The notes under the pieces were generated by a model. It was not told the DNA's origin. It did no database searches and saw only the letters and a program-made list of their open reading frames with translations. From positions 40,920,001 to 40,984,000 of the forward strand of contig OZ024740.1 of assembly GCA_964016885.1 (NCBI GenBank): a stretch of 64,000 nt of DNA, read 5' to 3'. Source of the stretch: Eledone cirrhosa. Its lineage: Eukaryota. The first letter of the stretch is position 1. Each line of letters opens with the position of its first letter. Made by a program: the position numbers and the translations under genes. Positions 14,079-52,760 of this stretch are shown one piece after another.

Positions 14079-14262
14079 TAATTAGAAAGTGAACAACACA
14101 AAATATAACTACTCCATTACCAAAGGTTTCATGACCCTAGACAATAATATACGCCTAGATTGTTCATCAGACGAACCATCTAGACATATATTAATATTAT
14201 CTAGGGTCCTGAAACCTTTGGTAATGGAGTAGCTATATATTGTGTTGTTCACTTTCTAATTA
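14079..14262. mobile_element. Fold-back palindrome of a PLE terminal repeat, centred on a hammerhead core
   Basis: aattagaaagtgaacaacaca...tgtgttgttcactttctaatt arms; axis at tcAga (~14169); followed by (TA)n. Confidence 0.8.
14113..14175 (-). ncRNA. Minimal type I hammerhead ribozyme motif
   Basis: UUCGU-CUGAUGA-stem II (ucuag/cuagg)-GAAAC-CUUUG-GUA-AUGGA. Confidence 0.65.
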
Positions 14263-14354
14263 TATATATATATATATATATATATATATACGTTATTCCG
14301 GGTTGAATCGGAGGTAACCATATATATATATATATATATATATATACATATACA

Positions 14355-14536
14355 TAGGAGAAAGTATGACAGAGCTCAAGCCATTTCGACGGCTATTTAG
14401 TCCAGAAATAGCCGTCGAAACAGCTTGAGCTCTGCCGTCGGAGTCATACTTTCTCCTATTACCCACTCTACTACCCTAAGTATCGAGTACTCTGGTGCGT
14501 TATGGTCCATCCGGTTCCTTACCACAACTCCTTCGT
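14355..14536. mobile_element. Short fold-back PLE terminal-repeat remnant between (TA)n tracts
   Basis: Inverted arms 14355-14458 (gagctcaagc..tttcgacggcta / tagccgtcgaaac..gcttgagctc); same family as 39420-39570. Confidence 0.65.
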
Positions 14537-14589
14537 TATATATATATATATATATATATATATATATATAGATAGAGAGAGAGAGGAAG

Positions 14590-15260
14590 GTAAAATCTGA
14601 CAGGATGTTAATCCAAGCTGCTCTTGTAGAATTAGAGAGAACTGCTCTCTCCAACAGAAATATAATATCAAATCTGTTGTGTATGAGGAGGAGATTACAC
14701 ACAACACCACAGAAAATTCTGAAGTTAGCGAAAGATACGTTGGTATGGTGTAAGATCATTTTAAACAATGTTTTTACATGCATTTCCACATCTTCAGGAA
14801 TTCTGATATGAAAACTACTACAGCACTGGCAAAAAAAAAAATGCCTGGCAATTAAAGGAAAAAGGAGTCCTACAAAAGAGTACTTGGAAGATACTTCAAA
14901 AATCCGGGTATTACACCAACGGTACCAAGAAATGTAATTTCTGTCTGAGTGAGAAATTTTGGATATTACAAGATTTGTCATCTCTGAACAATATTTACTT
15001 GAACTCAAAATGCAAAATTTTTAGAGGATGTCTCCATCTCAAAACCCAACTGCTTGCTAAGTGGAAATATTCAACAAATTCGACTGATTTTCAACCACCT
15101 TAATTTGATTTATATACTTCTGTTATATCTTTTCTTTCTCTTTTCATACTTACATAATACAATACACTTTCTACACTCCTCTACTCCATACCTTAATAAA
15201 TATTACCATCTCTATATTATATTCTACTATATAATACAATATTTCTGGTATAGTCTACAA
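14590..15260 (+). mobile_element. Degenerate Penelope GIY-YIG 3' fragment
   Basis: Broken plus-strand translation SERYVGM..FKQCFYMH..TTALA..WQLK..TKKCNFCLSEKFWILQ, homologous to 37549-37881. Confidence 0.75.
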
Positions 15261-48147: not shown

Positions 48148-49000
48148 CAGGGGGTTCGTATGAGCACAACAAAAGATGCGACCCTCTCTTTCCTGCCTCT
48201 TTCCTGCTCATCAGCCAATCATATCTTCCATCATTTTCCTATCTGTTCATTCATTGTGTTGTCGATAAAAACCACATCACTCCACACATAGACTAGAGCT
48301 ACCTCTACTTGCTCTTTTGAGGGTACATCGAAAGCCTCTTCGCTTTTCGAGAGGCTGAAGTATATAACTTTTTCTTTCATTCTTCAATAAAATAAGTAGG
48401 CAAGGGAGCAGAATTTTCCGTGATACAGGTCTTCCACCATGTTTTTCGGTGACACAGCTCTCCAACTATTTTTGATTTCCATTTTGTTTCTCATGTTTAA
48501 AGATCTTTAGAGACTCAGAACATTGGCCAAGCTGTTGTCTGCACAGTGAAGATTTTTGTTGGTTATGGCCACTGTCTGTGTTTCACCTTACACATTTGTG
48601 TTTTTCTGAATATTTTCCTAAAGTCAATCACTGCAATTGTGTTACTTAAATATAATCGTTTTTTTCTTTGTCCTTTTTTACAGTTCACAATTTTCAGAAT
48701 TTTGGACAAATTTTTCTTCGAAAATAGTGGGGGTGTAATGGAAGCTGCTTCATTTTTTGAAACTCTTTCTCAACGCTACCCAGGGCCAGACTTTTAAAAT
48801 TTGAGACCAGTCTCTAAAACAATTGGTGTAAAAAAAAAAAAAATACATGGTTATTATTAAGGAACGAATCCCTTTTTTGTATCAGAAGTTTTAGATATGT
48901 CTTCCTGCTAGGTACGGGTATGTTCTTTGTAGAATTATTCAGGTGTTCTTTCTGCATGATGAATATAAGTCAATAGAGTGCTCAACCGAGGGAGCCAAAT

Positions 49001-51160
49001 AGTAGTAATAATAAATGTGAAGACTAAAATCCAAAGAGGGCTCGATAAGGATAAATATATATCAATATATAAGAACCCTAGAGCAAATATTTATTAAAAT
49101 AACAGATTAAAGTTTAAGCAAAGAATCGTTGCTTTCACCCTTAACGGGATCTTCTGAAACTAAAAAAAATCAATCTGTGAACGCAGAAGTAAATATTTCG
49201 AAAAACGTTGCAACCGAAGGAAAACAAGAAGACGATACTTTGGTTCGTGAAGACGTTCCCTGGCAATGAACGAAAAAAAGCGAAGATAATACGTTGCTAT
49301 GTGGATCGTGGAGAACAATTACACGCAAAGACAAAACCACGTTTATGGTATAAATGGAGTCATTAGACTAATATTCTATTTAGGAAACCGAATGATTCTC
49401 GGCTTCGGAGTTAAGAATAATTATTTCTACTTTTTGGCACAAGGCCAGCAATTATCCCAGTGCATTACTGGTACTTTATTTCATCGACCTCGTAAGGATG
49501 AAAGGCAAAGTTAACCTCGGCGGGATTTGAATTCGGAGTTAAGAATAATGTAAATAAATTAGTAGAACGAAAATGACAGAGGTTATTAAAATCATAAAAG
49601 TAATAATAATTAAATATATACATACACGCATCCATATACGTACATACACGTGCATATGCGAAAACACCCGCCATGCATGCATATACATGCACGTACACAC
49701 AAACACGCGCACACATTCATAAACCCGCGCGACACATGTACTCGCACACATACGAACGTATACACCAAATACACATACAAATATGTGTGTGTGTATACAT
49801 ATAATTATATAAACGTATATAAATATACACACATAAATACGTATATAACGCACGCACACACATACCTACAGGTAAATACACATATGTTCACCAAACGTAC
49901 GTCAAACAAAACACAAAGTACACATATACACACCTTACATACGTGCAAACACGCATACACGCATACACACACAAACACAAAATACACATATACACATAAC
50001 CATATACACATATACCAGTATATATAATATAATATATACACCTATAACAAATACAAGCATATATACGTACGAGAAAGTATACGTACTTTCACAAAACATA
50101 CGGGTAAGGTTTACTTACCTATACAAATAAGTAATGGTATAAACATAAAATATACTTAGCTACCACATCAAGACGTAGAATATCCGCGTATAGTTCGTAC
50201 TATCCGTTAGGGTATAATGTGGGGCTGTAATACAGGAAAGTTTTATGCAATTTGTGTTTACAAGCCGAAATTGCCTCAGATTTTTTGTTTAAGGTGTGAT
50301 CATTGGCTTAGAGTATTTCCAGGGTTTCAGCGGCACAAATATCGCATGGTCTTTTATTTCCGTTATATGATCTAGCTTTAGCTAGGATCTCCCGGTGTAA
50401 CCTATATTGGGCGTGGTTATCTTTTAGACTCCAGATATAAGCTGAAAGTGACTCCATATTCCTTCTTAAAGGGTTAAGAAAAGAATGGGTGTGCATGTAA
50501 AGACGCTGCTTGAATCTATTGGCGGTTAACTCTATGTAGGCCCTACTAGACGTGGGTGTTTCGACCTTACATTTGTAGACAATGTTACCGGAGAAGCATT
50601 TTCCGGATATAGGGCAGTCAACCCGATTCCTACAATTACAGTTAGTACTAGCTACAGGGTTGCACGTGTTCCTACGGCTAGGTAATTTAGCTAATTTTGA
50701 AGCAGTGATGTGCAAGAGTAAGTTGTTAGTCGTAGAGTAAAATATTTTAATGGTATTTCTATTAAAAATTTTATTATATTTATGTGCTGAGGGGAAATGC
50801 TTCTTAATAAGGGAGAGAAAGATCTTAGCTAATGGTGTGGCCACCTCCATATTATATGGTGGGTTATACCATATAATGCGTCTGGATCTATTTTTTCTTG
50901 GTTTATGCTCATACTTAGTATATGCTACCTTATCGACAAATCCACTACGAGCTAGAGCTTCATTGTAATATGTGGAATGGTCGGTGAAAATATGCTCGTT
51001 TGTAGATAGACGGGAAAGCCTCAAAGAAACGTTTCTTACCAGGTTCTTGGTTATGCTGGCAGGATGGTTAGAATGCTTACTTATGTAATTAAGCGTATCA
51101 TTCGTCTTTCTATACGGGTAGTGCAAGCCATTCGACAAATTGAGGGTAACGTCGAGGTAA
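49001..51160 (-). mobile_element. 5'-truncated Penelope-like element (RT thumb, GIY-YIG, long 3'UTR)
   Basis: ORF 50308-51138: HSNHP, RSRRIIWYNPPY, CNCRNRVDCPISGKC..IVYKC, AYIELT..FKQRLYMH; SINE inserted at 49422-49531 with 18-bp TSD ttcggagttaagaataat. Confidence 0.93.
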
Positions 51161-51281
51161 TCGTGTTGCCTTCAATGAGGTGAGTGCAGGTTCCACAATT
51201 AGAGCGACCACATTTTTTGATACTTGGTTGTGGGTTTGGGTTCCACAATTAGAGCGACCACATTTTTTGATACTTGGTTGT

Positions 51282-52760
51282 TGTGGTCGCTCTAATTGTG
51301 GAACCTGCACTCACCTCATTGAAGGCAACACGTATACATTTAAATCAGGACAAAATTTTACTGTAAAAAATCACTTCACTTGCTCATCAAAAAATCTAAT
51401 TTATGCCATTAAATGTAAAGGATGCAATGAAGATTATATAGGACAAACTAAACTCACACTCAGAAACAGAATGACAGTTCATCGCCAACAATTACGAGAT
51501 CCAACCACGAGACAGATACCACTAAGTGCATATCTAGACATTTGCGCAAGTAATAAGACACCCAAATTCCAAGTCTTCCCATTTTACCTTTGCGCTAACA
51601 ATACAACAGAACAAATGCGAATAAATAAGGAAAATATCTTTATTCAAAAATATAGACCAACATTAAATAAGGTTTAATATACATTATGTCAACACCATAA
51701 TATGACATACACACACACACATAACACCTTCTACTTTAGAAAATAAAAACCCGAACTAAATAAACCTTAACATACGTTTGCACTGGCAATACAACAGCAA
51801 ACACGAAAAAGTAAGGAAAATATGTTCATTCAAAAATATTCCTACTAAAGGAATCACTTTCCTACACACACACATACACACACAATATATATATATATTC
51901 TCTTCATCTTAACATGCTAACCATACTCCCACACACATAACACCCATACACACACATAACAACCCCCACACCTACAACTCCCTCCCCATTTCTACTAATA
52001 GAACCACTTTCCTACACACATATATATATACACACACACAAAATATATATTCTCTCCATCTTAACATACTCGCACACACACACATAACACCCATATACAC
52101 ACACACACAACTCCCTCCCCCATCTCTACTAATAGAATCATCTTCCAATACACACATACACACACACACACACACACATACACACACACAAGCACACAAA
52201 TAAACATACATATCTTCACTTCAATAGAAAATCTGAACTCTGACACCCCGGCGAGCTGGCCATATTCACTGAACCAGAACAATTCTCCCAATCCCTTTTC
52301 TCTTGACCACTATCTTTCCATTGTCATAACATTCACTATAAAGACTACAGGATAGTTTTCCAAATAAGGGCGCAAAAATGTAATAAAAACTTGTTCATGT
52401 GACAGCCAAATTTCATTTATAACCAACCAAAAAAAAGCCTTCGTGAGCCTCCTTTTTTCAAGTAAAAAGAAATTCAAATATGAAAAAACAACCTGTGACA
52501 ACCCCCCCCTCTCTCTCTCTTATTTGAAGAACTATTGTAACGCGAACTGGCGCGAAATTTATTATAATTATTGACAAACCAATCAAATTACTTCTCGAAA
52601 AACCTGGCATTTCGAGCCACTTTTTCCATATAAAACAAGTAACATTCAGAGACCAACCAGATGTGAGAAAAACCACAGACCCTCCATCTCAACTCACCTT
52701 TTGAAAAGCAGAAGAACTGCGAAACCGGTAAAGGAACCAAATAAATATATATATTTAAAA
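51282..52760 (+). mobile_element. Neptune-like PLE 3' fragment (GIY-YIG and 3'UTR)
   Basis: CGRSNCGTC..FTCSSKNLIYAIKCKGCNEDYIGQT..LRNRMTVHRQ..E..FIQKYRPTLN; degenerate hammerhead CCUU-UUGAAAA-gcag/cugc-GAAACCGGUA-AAGG at 52697-52734. Confidence 0.88.

Follow-up and report, generated by a model that had tools for sequence, protein, structure and literature searches.

The 64,000-nucleotide stretch of the Eledone cirrhosa genome analysed here (the window) contains about seven hammerhead-ribozyme motifs, close to the ends of mirror-paired, truncated copies of Penelope-like elements (PLEs). What are these motifs, how did their paired arrangement beside (TA)n tracts arise, and does RNA cleavage play any part in it? 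Very likely, they are type-I hammerhead motifs near the 3' ends of PLEs with Hydra-clade hallmarks and of the 5'-truncated copies of these elements, mostly placed head-to-head in (TA)n. Their density had been remarked upon in a sequence-only reading of the window, whose coordinates, non-chance motifs and (TA)n association held up, but several of whose site calls did not.

Five sites are complete type-I hammerhead motifs (26239-26307-, 27271-27344+, 40942-41025-, 45303-45376- and 45523-45596+). The cores starting at 27283(+), 41013(-), 45364(-) and 45535(+) passed a strict type-I descriptor, which requires in turn CUGANGA, at least 3 bp in helix II, GAAA, helix III, UH and at least 5 bp in helix I; the core at 26289(-) is a relative that has two mismatches in helix II. 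The site at 14117-14171(-) belongs to a second hammerhead class, with a canonical core, a 3-bp helix III and an internal loop at the base of helix II; it did not pass the strict descriptor, nor is a hammerhead predicted as its minimum-energy fold. The seven cores first called intact comprise four strict motifs, one relative and one second-class motif, but the seventh, 45036(+), is non-canonical: both core boxes are present, with A.A at 10.1/11.1 and an extra A, a departure common to 12/12 family copies examined. Among the sites called degenerate, 39152 and 34355 are indeed decayed relatives (39146-39225(+) and 34350-34429(-), cores CCGACGA and CCAACGA), which lie at either outer end of a single PLE copy pair, 40580(-) combines U3 with G8, and 33805(+) has a core with A4, as do 100/100 of its family among the matches listed, of 23,972 genomic matches. 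In contrast, 52697 proved to be a well-formed U3-A8 core variant (52701-52731(+)). Each coordinate of that reading marks the low end of a motif; 17658 and 18445 were rejected as hammerheads, which their sequence does not fit. The features of the window are as follows.

14083-14256, minus strand: C-class PLE 3'-end fold-back, a long hairpin with a hammerhead at 14106-14182 (pattern match 14117-14171, contig positions 40934117-40934171 in the genome-wide pattern listing); left arm adjoins (TA)15 at 14261-14290.
26120-26307, minus strand: family A arm, hammerhead 26239-26307 with two helix-II mismatches (70.3 bits, the sequence itself being in the model's training set); long 'tail' end adjoins (AT)39 at 26039-26117.
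26325-26396, plus strand: partner arm in opposite orientation, hammerhead core deleted, 86% identical to 27319-27390; short end runs into (AT)26 at 26381-26430.
27160-27470, plus strand: family A1 unit with a 17-nt inverted-arm stub (27160-27176), central hairpin (27176-27230), hammerhead 27271-27344 with a predicted cut between 27332 and 27333, and tail to about 27470; at least 8 genomic copies are 100% identical over 139 nt.
27471-27809, no strand: (CT)n(AC)n(AT)n microsatellite directly 3' of the A1 end, its repeats ordered as the A1 element's terminal dinucleotides.
33770-33860, plus strand: hammerhead-like three-helix motif, core CAGAAGA (A at position 4), near (TA)53 at 33965-34071.
34326-36138, minus strand: inverted 5'-truncated C-family PLE copy, a 94% inverted repeat of 37515-39249, with decayed hammerhead 34350-34429, endonuclease-coding end 35814-36080 and (AT)25 outside at 34277-34327.
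36161-39249, plus strand: longer copy of the same C-family PLE, decayed hammerhead 39146-39225 followed by (TA)12 at 39326-39350; frameshifted RT-EN ORF remnants at 36161-37839 (38% identity to P0002 residues 157-810).
40575-40660, minus strand: hammerhead-like motif containing UUGAAGA (U3 with G8) and GAAACCGCGGUA; (AT)16 lies about 89 nt downstream, at 40474-40506.
40900-41185, minus strand: family B arm, hammerhead 40942-41025; short end into (TA)n(TG)n at 40796-40920.
41186-41316, plus strand: family B partner arm, tail-bearing 3' end only, adjoining (AT)28 at 41317-41373; 83-88% identical to the stretch just 3' of B hammerheads in at least 8/19 B loci.
44781-45125, plus strand: family D unit (1,569 first-look candidates in the family) between (TA)27 at 44727-44780 and (AT)27 at 45126-45179; hammerhead-like motif 45022-45090 with non-canonical helix II junction.
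45180-45376, minus strand: family A2 arm, hammerhead 45303-45376 and tail 45180-45302.
45377-45633, plus strand: fold-back centre (about 45445) and A2 arm, hammerhead 45523-45596, short end into (TA)26 at 45634-45686; the A2 fold-back is a 157-bp hairpin (-246 kcal/mol).
50236-51162, minus strand: Hydra-type PLE ORF remnant (P0002 residues 422-816, 34-41% identity).
52701-52731, plus strand: compact hammerhead with U3-A8 core pair (UUGAAAA, helix II GCAG/CUGC, GAAA, palindromic ACCGGU, predicted cut after UA); (TA)73 follows 79 nt downstream, at 52807-52952.

A chance origin of the motifs is excluded. The strict descriptor matched four window sites, against 0.035 on average, and never more than 1, in 200 local dinucleotide shuffles; it had no match on the reversed window sequence. 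Genome-wide, a first pattern gave 91,863 matches against 106 in its control, the pattern for the 14117-14171 class 13,869 against 1, and the U3-A8 pattern 18,959 against 3; in all, 124,691 matches stand against 110 in reversed controls. The Rfam hammerhead models gave no family at gathering score and none at E<=10 over the whole window, and no match on 45000-45620 alone (621 nt). The window has 7 motifs where 2.66 are expected from the genome mean (Poisson P=0.019), an enrichment of only about 2.6-fold, which weighs against the claimed density; the density of the window reflects a property of the whole genome.

Where head-to-head motifs lie 2-5 kb apart, they flank ORFs for a reverse transcriptase (RT) with a GIY-YIG-like C-terminus, and 6/6 pairs fetched for a spacing of 2.5-5 kb bracket such ORFs. 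P0002 carries YRDD, DKT, CNCRIKNKC (CxCX5C), LIYEC..YFGSTSTSFKARLYNH, CNLC and CLH motifs, and its structure model (pLDDT 78) best matches telomerase catalytic subunits (E 5.5e-08). Profile comparison with a second PLE ORF was collinear from YxDD to GIY-YIG (E 0.0012). BLASTP of P0002 against the canonical-type P0001 gave no significant match, with an hhalign probability of only 18.8%, Pfam found no domain in P0002 or P0003 and detected GIY-YIG in only 1/14 relatives (E 0.0055), and the nuclease-domain model is poor (pLDDT 48.9). The elements consist of an ORF, a 3' UTR of about 1-1.6 kb and then the hammerhead, the motifs lying about 50 or about 130 nt from the 3' ends of PLEs and of their 5'-truncated copies. 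The window arm 45445-45640 has 88-97% identity to the 3' ends of ORF-bearing elements, and one A1 copy extends upstream into a P0003-like ORF (82% identity). The PLE origin proposed from sequence alone is upheld by these pairs and arms and by the ORF remnants in the window; the several unrelated families proposed with it were an overstatement, because most window motif families are lineages of one PLE group.

The hallmarks of these elements, namely a telomerase-like RT fold, DKT, a CxCX5C linker and a GIY-YIG-like C-terminus, suggest an affinity to the Hydra clade. Hydra-clade PLEs, with molluscs among their hosts, are described in the sections of Craig, Yushenova, Rodriguez and Arkhipova (2021; PMC8557442) used here as having DKT instead of DKG, the CxCX5C linker, CxxC and CxH, canonical hammerheads and an insertion bias toward (TA)n, all of which are found in the elements here; the same sections report 5' truncation, an inverted 5'-truncated copy and a tail at one end. 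Compared with that description, the elements here exceed 3 kb, their 3' UTR measuring 1-1.6 kb, have RWT instead of RWK, and are far more abundant than the 'small number of additional families' outside cnidarians.

A (TA)n tract of at least six repeats was found 50-66 or 122-154 nt downstream in 18/20 systematically sampled sites, against a background of 6.5% of window positions (P=7e-20), in agreement with the proximity first reported, and 28/30 A1 long ends are followed by at least four repeats. The order of the ends is hammerhead, about 50 nt, first end point, 85-90 nt tail, second end point, (TA)n. The sharing of tracts among different families and the literature favour targeting of (TA)n by the elements; at some 3' junctions, however, (CT)n(AC)n(AT)n runs stand in a fixed order, a hint that insertion itself may create some of the repeat. 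The layout of motif, PLE and (TA)n is already-described PLE biology, and the earlier PLE and (TA)n interpretation therefore holds.

In the hammerheads, helix I spans about 8 bp, helix II is long and contains a pyrimidine.pyrimidine mismatch that is conserved, and helix III has 2 bp, its 8 nt being palindromic. In 16 variants from several lineages, 96.1% of cells are paired, against 83.4% in shuffles (0/500 reach 96.1%). In this alignment, selected by a descriptor that itself forces part of helices I and II, 12/19 pairs have changed on both sides; slid controls gave 31-58%. The descriptor did not itself impose pairs 24-27/55-58 and 5-8/79-82. Pairing at the helix III loop positions 68-71 and 69-70 is found in 100% of cells and includes AU-to-GC changes, in keeping with a dimer-type palindrome, and the U3-A8 covariant was seen in two helix-II families. 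Among single motifs, only 45523-45596 has a minimum-energy fold resembling a hammerhead, and fold z-scores are unremarkable for 27271-27344 and 26239-26307. The sections of Cervera and de la Pena (2014; PMC4209133) drawn on here describe PLE hammerheads as type-I motifs whose helix II is long and whose helix III, short and palindromic, is believed to require dimers, with opposite-strand pairing 100-700 bp apart, a U3-A8 covariant and a highly variable sequence with compensatory changes, features shared by the window motifs. Relative to the minimal PLE hammerhead in those sections, however, most motifs here keep a helix III of 2-3 bp and an 8-bp helix I and are nearer the 'canonical' type I; the minimal form, with an unpaired base before helix II, occurs in the P0001-type element of locus L033.

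Self-cleavage is predicted from these motifs, but the 'self-cleaving hairpins' of the sequence-only reading are doubtful as stated: the ribozyme strand would be locked in the 157-bp hairpin of a fold-back transcript, helix III is of the dimer-requiring kind, and published PLE hammerheads, in the accounts used, cut poorly or need protein (PMC4209133; PMC11167929). The influence on transcripts and dsRNA load put forward in that reading would be hypothetical. It is possible, if somewhat doubtful, that the motifs are true hammerhead homologues carried along idly, with no cutting in vivo and no role in transposition or transcript shaping. The lack of Rfam matches, the weak folds of single motifs, their sequestration in fold-backs and the 23,972 matches of the A4 family would suit this idea, as would the poor in vitro cutting of PLE hammerheads (PMC4209133, in part) and Poseidon insertion without need of cleavage, with no reads ending at the cut site (PMC11167929). 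On the other hand, diverged lineages have retained the core while their helices covary; the covarying features include the exchange of C3-G8 for U3-A8 and the palindromic helix III, and this combination is difficult to account for unless selection acts on the fold.

Most copies are two-armed, with fixed outer ends and a variable centre, one arm ending at the first end point and the other carrying the tail. Adjacent sites within 5.2 kb were ordered -+ in 26 cases, ++ in 5, -- in 3 and +- in 3. The 26 head-to-head pairs, drawn from 100 genome sites among the matches listed, comprise 19 long/short, 1 short/short, 0 clearly long/long and 6 unclassifiable, and exactly one arm bears the 85-90 nt tail in 19/20 classifiable pairs (binomial P=2e-05). 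At least 18/30 A1 loci have an inverted arm, which ends at reference position 627-630 in 15 of them; locus L018 has two long arms. The closest relative of an arm, among 51 others, is its own partner in 30/52 arms, with ties in 11. In LINE-1 twin priming, a second nick serves as a primer on the RNA and the 5' part ends up inverted; its two parts do not overlap, whereas both arms here cover the same sequence.

This copy anatomy, together with the in vitro reconstitution of the green anole Poseidon PLE, in which both strands are cut and extended and two internal RT start sites, separated by a tail, are used (Frangieh et al., 2024; PMC11167929), makes a mechanism with two start sites likely. (TA)n is self-complementary, and both strands would likely be nicked by the element's nuclease; both 3' ends would likely prime cDNA at two adjacent start sites close to the RNA's 3' end, probably as two priming events on one RNA, and a fold-back would then result when these two cDNAs join, at a point that varies. 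The elements here resemble Poseidon in their two adjacent 3'-side end points with a tail between and in their AT-rich targets, and their genomic signature fits cutting and extension of both strands. They differ in belonging to another PLE clade, in their 85-90 nt tail (30-40 bp in Poseidon), and in the hammerhead, which here lies in the 3' UTR, upstream of the start sites, and in Poseidon at the ORF start.

It seems unlikely that, instead, one cDNA folds back and copies itself, or that a hairpin-capped intermediate is replicated, with no second priming, the free (TA)n end then becoming attached at the first TA-rich stretch. Near-identical arms with private variants in common, a variable and often almost symmetric centre, and a short end within the TA-rich stretch ATATATTGTATAT would be consistent with such copying, but strongly unequal arms in some units (L013, L014) and a loop that is part of the inverted arm in others (L002, L007) argue against it, as does the published extension of both strands from internal sites in a different PLE in vitro. 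Derivation of the short units as non-autonomous retrozymes from small, hammerhead-processed and possibly circular RNAs, merely mobilised by PLE proteins, has little to recommend it. Like metazoan non-LTR retrozymes, as presented in parts of the literature (PMC7229834; Li et al., 2026), the units are small and non-coding, carry type-I hammerheads, are low in GC and probably depend on PLE proteins. The derivation of retrozymes from PLE pLTRs described in part of Li et al. (2026, bioRxiv) would speak for this reading, as would the dimer-type helix III, copies that read through the cleavage site, and stops near reference position 430-442 (9/30 A1 main arms, 8/18 inverted arms), as though the RNA favoured a particular 5' end. 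Retrozymes, however, are arranged as tandem head-to-tail repeats some 170-400 nt long and are expressed as circles (PMC7229834, in part), whereas the window contains no head-to-tail arrays of units, same-strand neighbours are rare (8/37), and the units are inverted pairs with arms that run collinear to the 3' UTR of ORF-bearing elements. An origin as MITE-like DNA transposons that have terminal inverted repeats, a TA target and incidental hammerhead-like boxes can be given next to no credence: the long perfect hairpins and TA-rich flanks are reminiscent of them, but only the outer ends are fixed while centres vary, the arms are unequal with one tail and represent the 3' ends of RT-encoding elements, and the flanks are long (TA)n tracts with no TA duplication.

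Under the two-start-site mechanism, the hammerhead, if active at all, would act as a dimer or with the aid of protein, on multimeric transcripts. Cutting may be dispensable for these elements, because the A4 family thrives at 24,000 copies and cleavage is not required in the published in vitro system.

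A strict type-I hammerhead descriptor (CUGANGA; helix II, ≥3 bp; GAAA; helix III; UH; helix I, ≥5 bp) is passed by four sites of the window, with core starts at 27283(+), 41013(-), 45364(-) and 45535(+), and the site at 26289(-) is a relative of these with two mismatches in helix II. These five sites have in common a helix III made of A-U, U-A and four loop bases, and their 15.1-16.1 octamers (AUAUGUAU, AUAUAUAU, AUACGUAU) are self-complementary. The core C3 U4 G5 A6 N7 G8 A9 / G12 A13 A14 / A15.1-U16.1 / H17 is present at six sites. A sequence-only reading had counted seven cores as "intact" and eight as "degenerate", spread from 14 to 53 kb, and its coordinates proved correct when every site was read. 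Six of its intact cores are canonical, whereas the helix II junction of the seventh, at 45036(+), is not. As for the degenerate ones, 39152 and 34355 are decayed as described, 52701-52731 is instead a well-paired U3-A8 variant, and 17658 and 18445 do not fit a hammerhead. A CTGATGA at 48208(-) was rejected on reading.

Hammerhead and related motifs of the window
14117-14171 (-): complete, canonical core; 3-bp helix III (ACC UUU GGU); helix II with a 2x2 internal loop beside its first pair
26239-26307 (-): complete core
27271-27344 (+): complete core
40942-41025 (-): complete core
45303-45376 (-): complete core
45523-45596 (+): complete core
45036 (+): both boxes present; A.A pair and extra A at the helix II junction, as in 12 of 12 family copies examined
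39146-39225 (+): decayed hammerhead, CCGACGA
34350-34429 (-): decayed hammerhead, CCAACGA
52701-52731 (+): compact, well-paired motif; core UUGAAAA, with U3/A8 replacing C3/G8
40580 (-): U3 with G8, outside the core consensus
33805 (+): A at core position 4, outside the core consensus

Against the four strict hits, 200 shuffles that kept local dinucleotide content average 0.035 and never exceed 1, so that the motif frequency is above that of composition-matched sequence; the reversed window sequence yields no strict hit. No hammerhead family of Rfam (Hammerhead_1 or related) was found across the window at gathering score or at E<=10, nor when 621 nt spanning three of the best sites were searched, with other families then giving hits down to approximately 8 bits; the output of these searches was restricted to microRNA-like hairpin and low-complexity matches. 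In minimum-energy folds of single motifs, helices I and II appear together only for 45523-45596. A covariance model (R1) gave no independent detection, because it exceeds 70 bits in the window only for its five training sites and the next scores, 17.3 bits at 39146-39225 and 15.5 bits at 14106-14182, are at noise level.

Comparative evidence comes from approximately 398 kb of genome sequence, in which the descriptor finds 32 distinct helix II sequences. Sixteen variants drawn from several lineages were aligned, with rows chosen by a descriptor that imposes part of helices I and II; 96.1% of cells are paired, as compared with 83.4% in shuffles (0 of 500 as high). Both-sided changes occur in 12 of 19 pairs, and slid partners pair at 31-58%. 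The outer pairs of helices I and II and two loop-III pairs, which the descriptor does not impose, also covary (AU/GC, UA/CG, UA/AU). At its fourth position (columns 23/59 of this alignment, A3; e.g., window 27293 with 27318), helix II has a C.C or C.U mismatch in 16 of 16 variants, flanked by covarying pairs; this pyrimidine.pyrimidine mismatch may be a tertiary-contact site. Two helix II sequences accompany the U3-A8 exchange, in which position 7 is either A or U. Published hammerheads of Penelope-like elements (PLEs) show a long helix II, a short palindromic helix III thought to act as a dimer, and U3-A8 covariants; they occur as pairs on opposite strands and were detected by descriptors rather than by Rfam models (PMC4209133, in excerpt). 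Together with the tests that favor it, these published traits lead us to accept the hammerhead identity of the motifs on sequence grounds, self-cleavage being a prediction only.

The same motifs are common throughout the assembly, which was searched by patterns over 2,995,841,428 bases and in which the window is G000:C1:40920001-40984000.

Genome-wide pattern matches
TCTGANGA N18-48 GAAATNNNNATAA: 46,341 + 45,522 matches; reversed control 44 + 62
class with GAAACCNNNGGTAA: 13,869 matches; reversed control 1
U3-A8 class with GAAACCGGTAA: 18,959 matches; reversed control 3

The three patterns sum to 124,691 matches, or 41.6 per Mb. At this rate 2.66 matches would be expected in the window, which holds seven (P=0.019). 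The "window-wide hammerhead density" noted earlier is therefore a property of the genome, mildly raised here. The family with A at core position 4 (A4; window 33770-33860(+)) has 23,972 matches, with A4 in 100 of the 100 matches listed under a pattern that left this base free. Such a core change is expected to cripple hammerhead cleavage, and this large family thrives despite it. The altered-core families (U3-A8 with 18,959 matches, A4 with 23,972) constitute natural material to ask whether cleavage matters to PLEs. Among the hammerhead-bearing lineages of the window, family A1 is young, judging from sequence, with at least 8 copies identical across 139 nt among 779 first-look candidates; copies of family B are 84-94% identical (686 candidates) and those of family D 93-97% (1,569 candidates).

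The PLE origin attributed to the motifs is borne out by the fact that their arms, the halves of fold-back or head-to-head pairs, match the 3' ends of ORF-bearing elements and that ORF remnants lie in the window. Four such elements have 3' ends that the arm at 45445-45640 matches at 88-97%, and the A1 copy at locus L033 extends upstream into an ORF 82% identical to P0003, a Hydra-type PLE protein of this genome. Six of six motif pairs chosen for a spacing of 2.5-5 kb enclose ORFs. With P0002 and P0003, both Hydra-type, as queries, coding remnants were detected at six places; P0001, a canonical-looking PLE protein, found no PLE coding sequence in the window as sole query.

Hydra-type PLE ORF remnants in the window (P0002/P0003 queries)
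14846-15037 (+)
35814-36080 (-)
36161-37839 (+)
41922-42239 (-)
48859-48957 (-)
50236-51162 (-)

The segment 34326-39249 is one textbook PLE unit, in which a longer copy and an inverted, 5'-truncated one are 94% alike, with (TA)n outside and decayed hammerheads at the two outer ends. A relationship to metazoan non-LTR retrozymes is opposed by arrangement, as retrozymes form head-to-tail tandems whereas the units of the window are inverted pairs and no head-to-tail tandem hammerhead array of the retrozyme type was found at its sites. In the genome, neighboring sites at most 5.2 kb apart among the first 100 matches listed comprise 26 of order -+, 5 of ++, 3 of -- and 3 of +-, so that -+ makes up 26 of 37.

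The Hydra clade of PLEs is defined by a single ORF with a C-terminal GIY-YIG domain, DKT replacing DKG, a CxCX5C linker, the motifs CxxC and CxH, a canonical hammerhead and insertion at (TA)n, and further by an RWK motif, the absence of CCHH and a length under 3 kb; molluscs are among its hosts (PMC8557442, in excerpt). P0002 (821 aa) reads YRDD, SDKTNN, CNCRIKNKC, LIYEC..YFGSTSTSFKARLYNH, CNLC..E..N and CLH, and its CxCX5C linker, CxxC and CxH are conserved in five of five aligned copies of its type. A structural model built from 14 sequences (pLDDT 78) best matches telomerase catalytic subunits (E 5.5e-08), followed by other reverse transcriptases, so that P0002, by this model and by its YRDD, is a single ORF with a reverse transcriptase of the PLE/telomerase kind. 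No Pfam match, RVT_1 included, was obtained for P0002 and the other PLE ORFs, and a PDB sequence search with these ORFs gave none either.

The nuclease domain of P0002 is more elusive. Pfam reports GIY-YIG in one of 14 P0002 relatives, at a weak E of 0.0055, and the domain modelled alone reaches a pLDDT of 48.9. LIYEC..YFGSTSTSFKARLYNH aligns to VVYSIRC..YIGETARSIGERINEH of P0001, and profile comparison of the two proteins gives a collinear order of YxDD, zinc-finger linker and GIY-YIG (E 0.0012, probability 18.8%). Atlas neighbors of P0002 carry HTH_animal, DUF8422, GIY-YIG (26-50% of members) and RVT_1. The elements of this genome thus resemble the Hydra clade in DKT, the CxCX5C linker, CxxC and CxH, all found in P0002, as well as in their canonical hammerhead and (TA)n insertion. 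They appear to differ in exceeding 3 kb, the copy at L096 measuring over 3.7 kb from ORF through 3' end, and in RWT, which P0002 reads where the clade has RWK. By these motifs rather than by phylogeny, they are assigned as PLEs with Hydra-clade hallmarks. P0001 (710 aa) has a CX2-5CxxC-like linker and GIY-YIG. Its element at L033 4816-8925(-) sits inside the 3' UTR of an element of Hydra type, together with its own inverted 5' copy, and has a minimal hammerhead with an unpaired base before helix II. The C-terminal 200 aa of P0001 yield 30,671 first-look candidates in the genome.

That the motifs lie near (TA)n was confirmed on a sample of every fifth of the first 100 matches listed (n=20): (TA)>=6 follows the predicted cut in 18 of 20 sites, at 50-66 nt in 8 and at 122-154 nt in 10, against a background of 6.5% of window positions from which one lies 38-154 nt away (P=7e-20). 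Similarly, 28 of 30 A1 long ends have (TA)>=4 within 45 nt. The two ends of a pair differ by a "tail" of 85-90 nt on the longer one, which contains a conserved ACTCC..GAGTGC and a hairpin TTGTTG/CAACAA (TTATTGT/ACAATAA in another family). Among the first 100 matches listed, the 26 -/+ pairs comprise 19 long/short, 1 short/short, no clearly long/long and 6 unclassifiable ones. The rule of one tail per pair is therefore followed by 19 of 20 classifiable pairs (binomial P 2e-05 under independent ends), as it is by five of five A/B units in the window. One locus with two long arms was found among 30 A1 loci examined.

At least 18 of 30 A1 loci contain an inverted arm; 15 of these arms end at positions 627-630 of the A1 reference, with a center that varies between copies. 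The two arms of a unit have private variants in common, the partner being the closest of 51 alternatives for 30 of 52 arms, with ties for 11. Comparison by BLAST with diverged long copies indicates that, for several "unpaired" motifs, there is a partner arm that stops short of its own hammerhead. Simple 5' junctions called by the same comparison were rejected as unreliable, because the boundaries tracked subfamily divergence. The arms at L098 (G000:C1:4408057-4408108(-) and 4410656-4410707(+)) differ by an inverted helix II loop (TTTTTAA vs. TTAAAAA) on a palindromic stem, and those at L123 (G000:C1:628201(-) and 628597(+)) by several A/G differences.

Whether such elements target or generate (TA)n, both of which had been suggested, may be answered in favor of both. 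Targeting is favored by the literature, by tracts common to different families, since D and then the A2 fold-back lie among three (TA)26-27 tracts at 44727-45686, and by three A1 copies that have no visible inverted arm and also adjoin (TA)n in 5' (L010, L019, L029). Regarding generation, 7-8 of 30 A1 copies, the window copy included, show (CT)n and/or (AC)n separating ..AACCTCTAC from (AT)n, ordered like the terminal dinucleotides.

(CT)n/(AC)n runs at 3' junctions, very young copies among them
Window: 27471-27809
Genome loci: L001, L010, L018, L022, L023, L028, L029

Ordered runs occur at approximately 3 of 19 further junction sites, a count restricted to the distinct sites listed, as the variable-gap pattern recounts the same site on one strand. 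These runs look as if the reverse transcriptase had stuttered at initiation, and at L021 (~1740-1800 in element orientation) a terminal segment, ATAACCTCTACAT, repeated ahead of (TA)n suggests re-initiation on the RNA end.

Six (TA)n tracts of the window measure 26-28.5 units (24481-24534, 26381-26430, 41317-41373, 44727-44780, 45126-45179, 45634-45686), three consecutive ones being 54, 54 and 53 bp long; such similar lengths could stem from an equilibrium of length, from the assembly or from a mechanism. Other repeats also reside at these tracts. At 14380-14536(-), a repeat (AACGAAGGA..GGTAATAGGA..CCGACGG..) with an internal palindrome lies between (TA)n tracts and lacks a canonical hammerhead; it recurs in the flanks of L002, L019, L104 and L114. 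Directly after a (TA)26 tract, 45720-45809 is a 90-nt near-perfect palindrome (TCACCCTAGCGAACC..GGTTCGCTAGGGTGA), scored as a microRNA-like hairpin, with a like sequence in the L004 flank. The window further contains LINE remnants, not PLE, at 4094-13340(+), with ORFs for an Exo_endo_phos_2 endonuclease, RVT_1 (E 3e-31) and a PHD finger; a tRNA-like stretch at 47990-48140(-) with a B-box-like GAGTTCAAATCCCGCCGGG, adjoining (AG)13 and probably a SINE; and tandem arrays at 58095-58646 (59-bp unit, 9.4 copies, 92% matches) and 62435-62633 (37-bp unit, 5.4 copies, 96% matches).

PLE insertions are described as 5'-truncated, often accompanied by an inverted 5'-truncated copy, with a tail at a single end (PMC8557442, in excerpt). 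The purified protein of the Poseidon PLE cuts and extends both DNA strands, and reverse transcription begins at two neighboring sites within the RNA, which flank the tail; mutation of the hammerhead leaves insertion normal, and the ribozyme requires the protein (PMC11167929). We tentatively propose, as a possibility that is rather doubtful, that a fold-back is the record of one integration in which a PLE particle cuts both strands of the palindromic (TA)n and two cDNAs are made on a single RNA from start sites 85-90 nt apart, which would force exactly one tail, while reverse transcriptase stutter on the terminal CU-CU-AC-AU would write part of the flanking microsatellite. In the course that is most likely on the anatomy seen and on the Poseidon work, the two 3' ends of a (TA)n break being alike, each would prime at one or the other start site, both probably on the same RNA, and the two cDNAs would then be joined at a variable point. 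One start site per end and probably one RNA would explain both the single tail per unit and the variants that its arms share. Starts would be predicted at ..UUAAUAUAUUGUAUAU and ..AACCUCUAC on both strands, with (CU)n/(AC)n/(AU)n stutter should the junction repeats be the enzyme's product. For the last steps of integration, a snap-back route is the main rival to this two-start scheme.

As to the RNA that such units might produce, the predicted read-through transcript of a fold-back buries the ribozyme in a 157-bp hairpin (-246 kcal/mol), and the "self-cleaving hairpins" of the sequence-only reading are therefore unlikely as worded. A dsRNA load might plausibly arise from fold-backs.

Architecture, (TA)n bias, palindromic helix III, opposite-strand pairs, U3-A8 core and one-sided tail are already in print; the hammerhead-bearing elements described here are of a known kind, and the earlier observation was correct and its PLE interpretation mostly so. 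Literature searches on cephalopod and octopus PLEs and hammerheads found neither Hydra-type PLEs at such abundance in this kind of genome nor a published count of the one-tail rule. A paper on Octopus vulgaris repeats lists PLEs, and the words "hammerhead" and "Hydra" are absent from it. Outside cnidarians, a handful of Hydra-clade families have been reported so far (PMC8557442, in excerpt).

The striking pattern of the window is what one retroelement group ordinarily leaves behind and should not be taken for a new RNA system. In this 3-Gb genome, PLEs with Hydra hallmarks are among the commonest repeats, with approximately 125,000 matches to three patterns, or 42 per Mb, and their fold-backs account for many microRNA-like hairpin matches in such genomes. 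The one-tail rule (19 of 20 classifiable pairs) is a genomic counterpart of the two reverse transcription starts and double-strand extension seen in vitro, and it lets the two-start-site model be tested by counting. If that model is true, the approximately 46,000 pairs of this genome would naturally archive a step known so far from a single in vitro system, that of another PLE clade.
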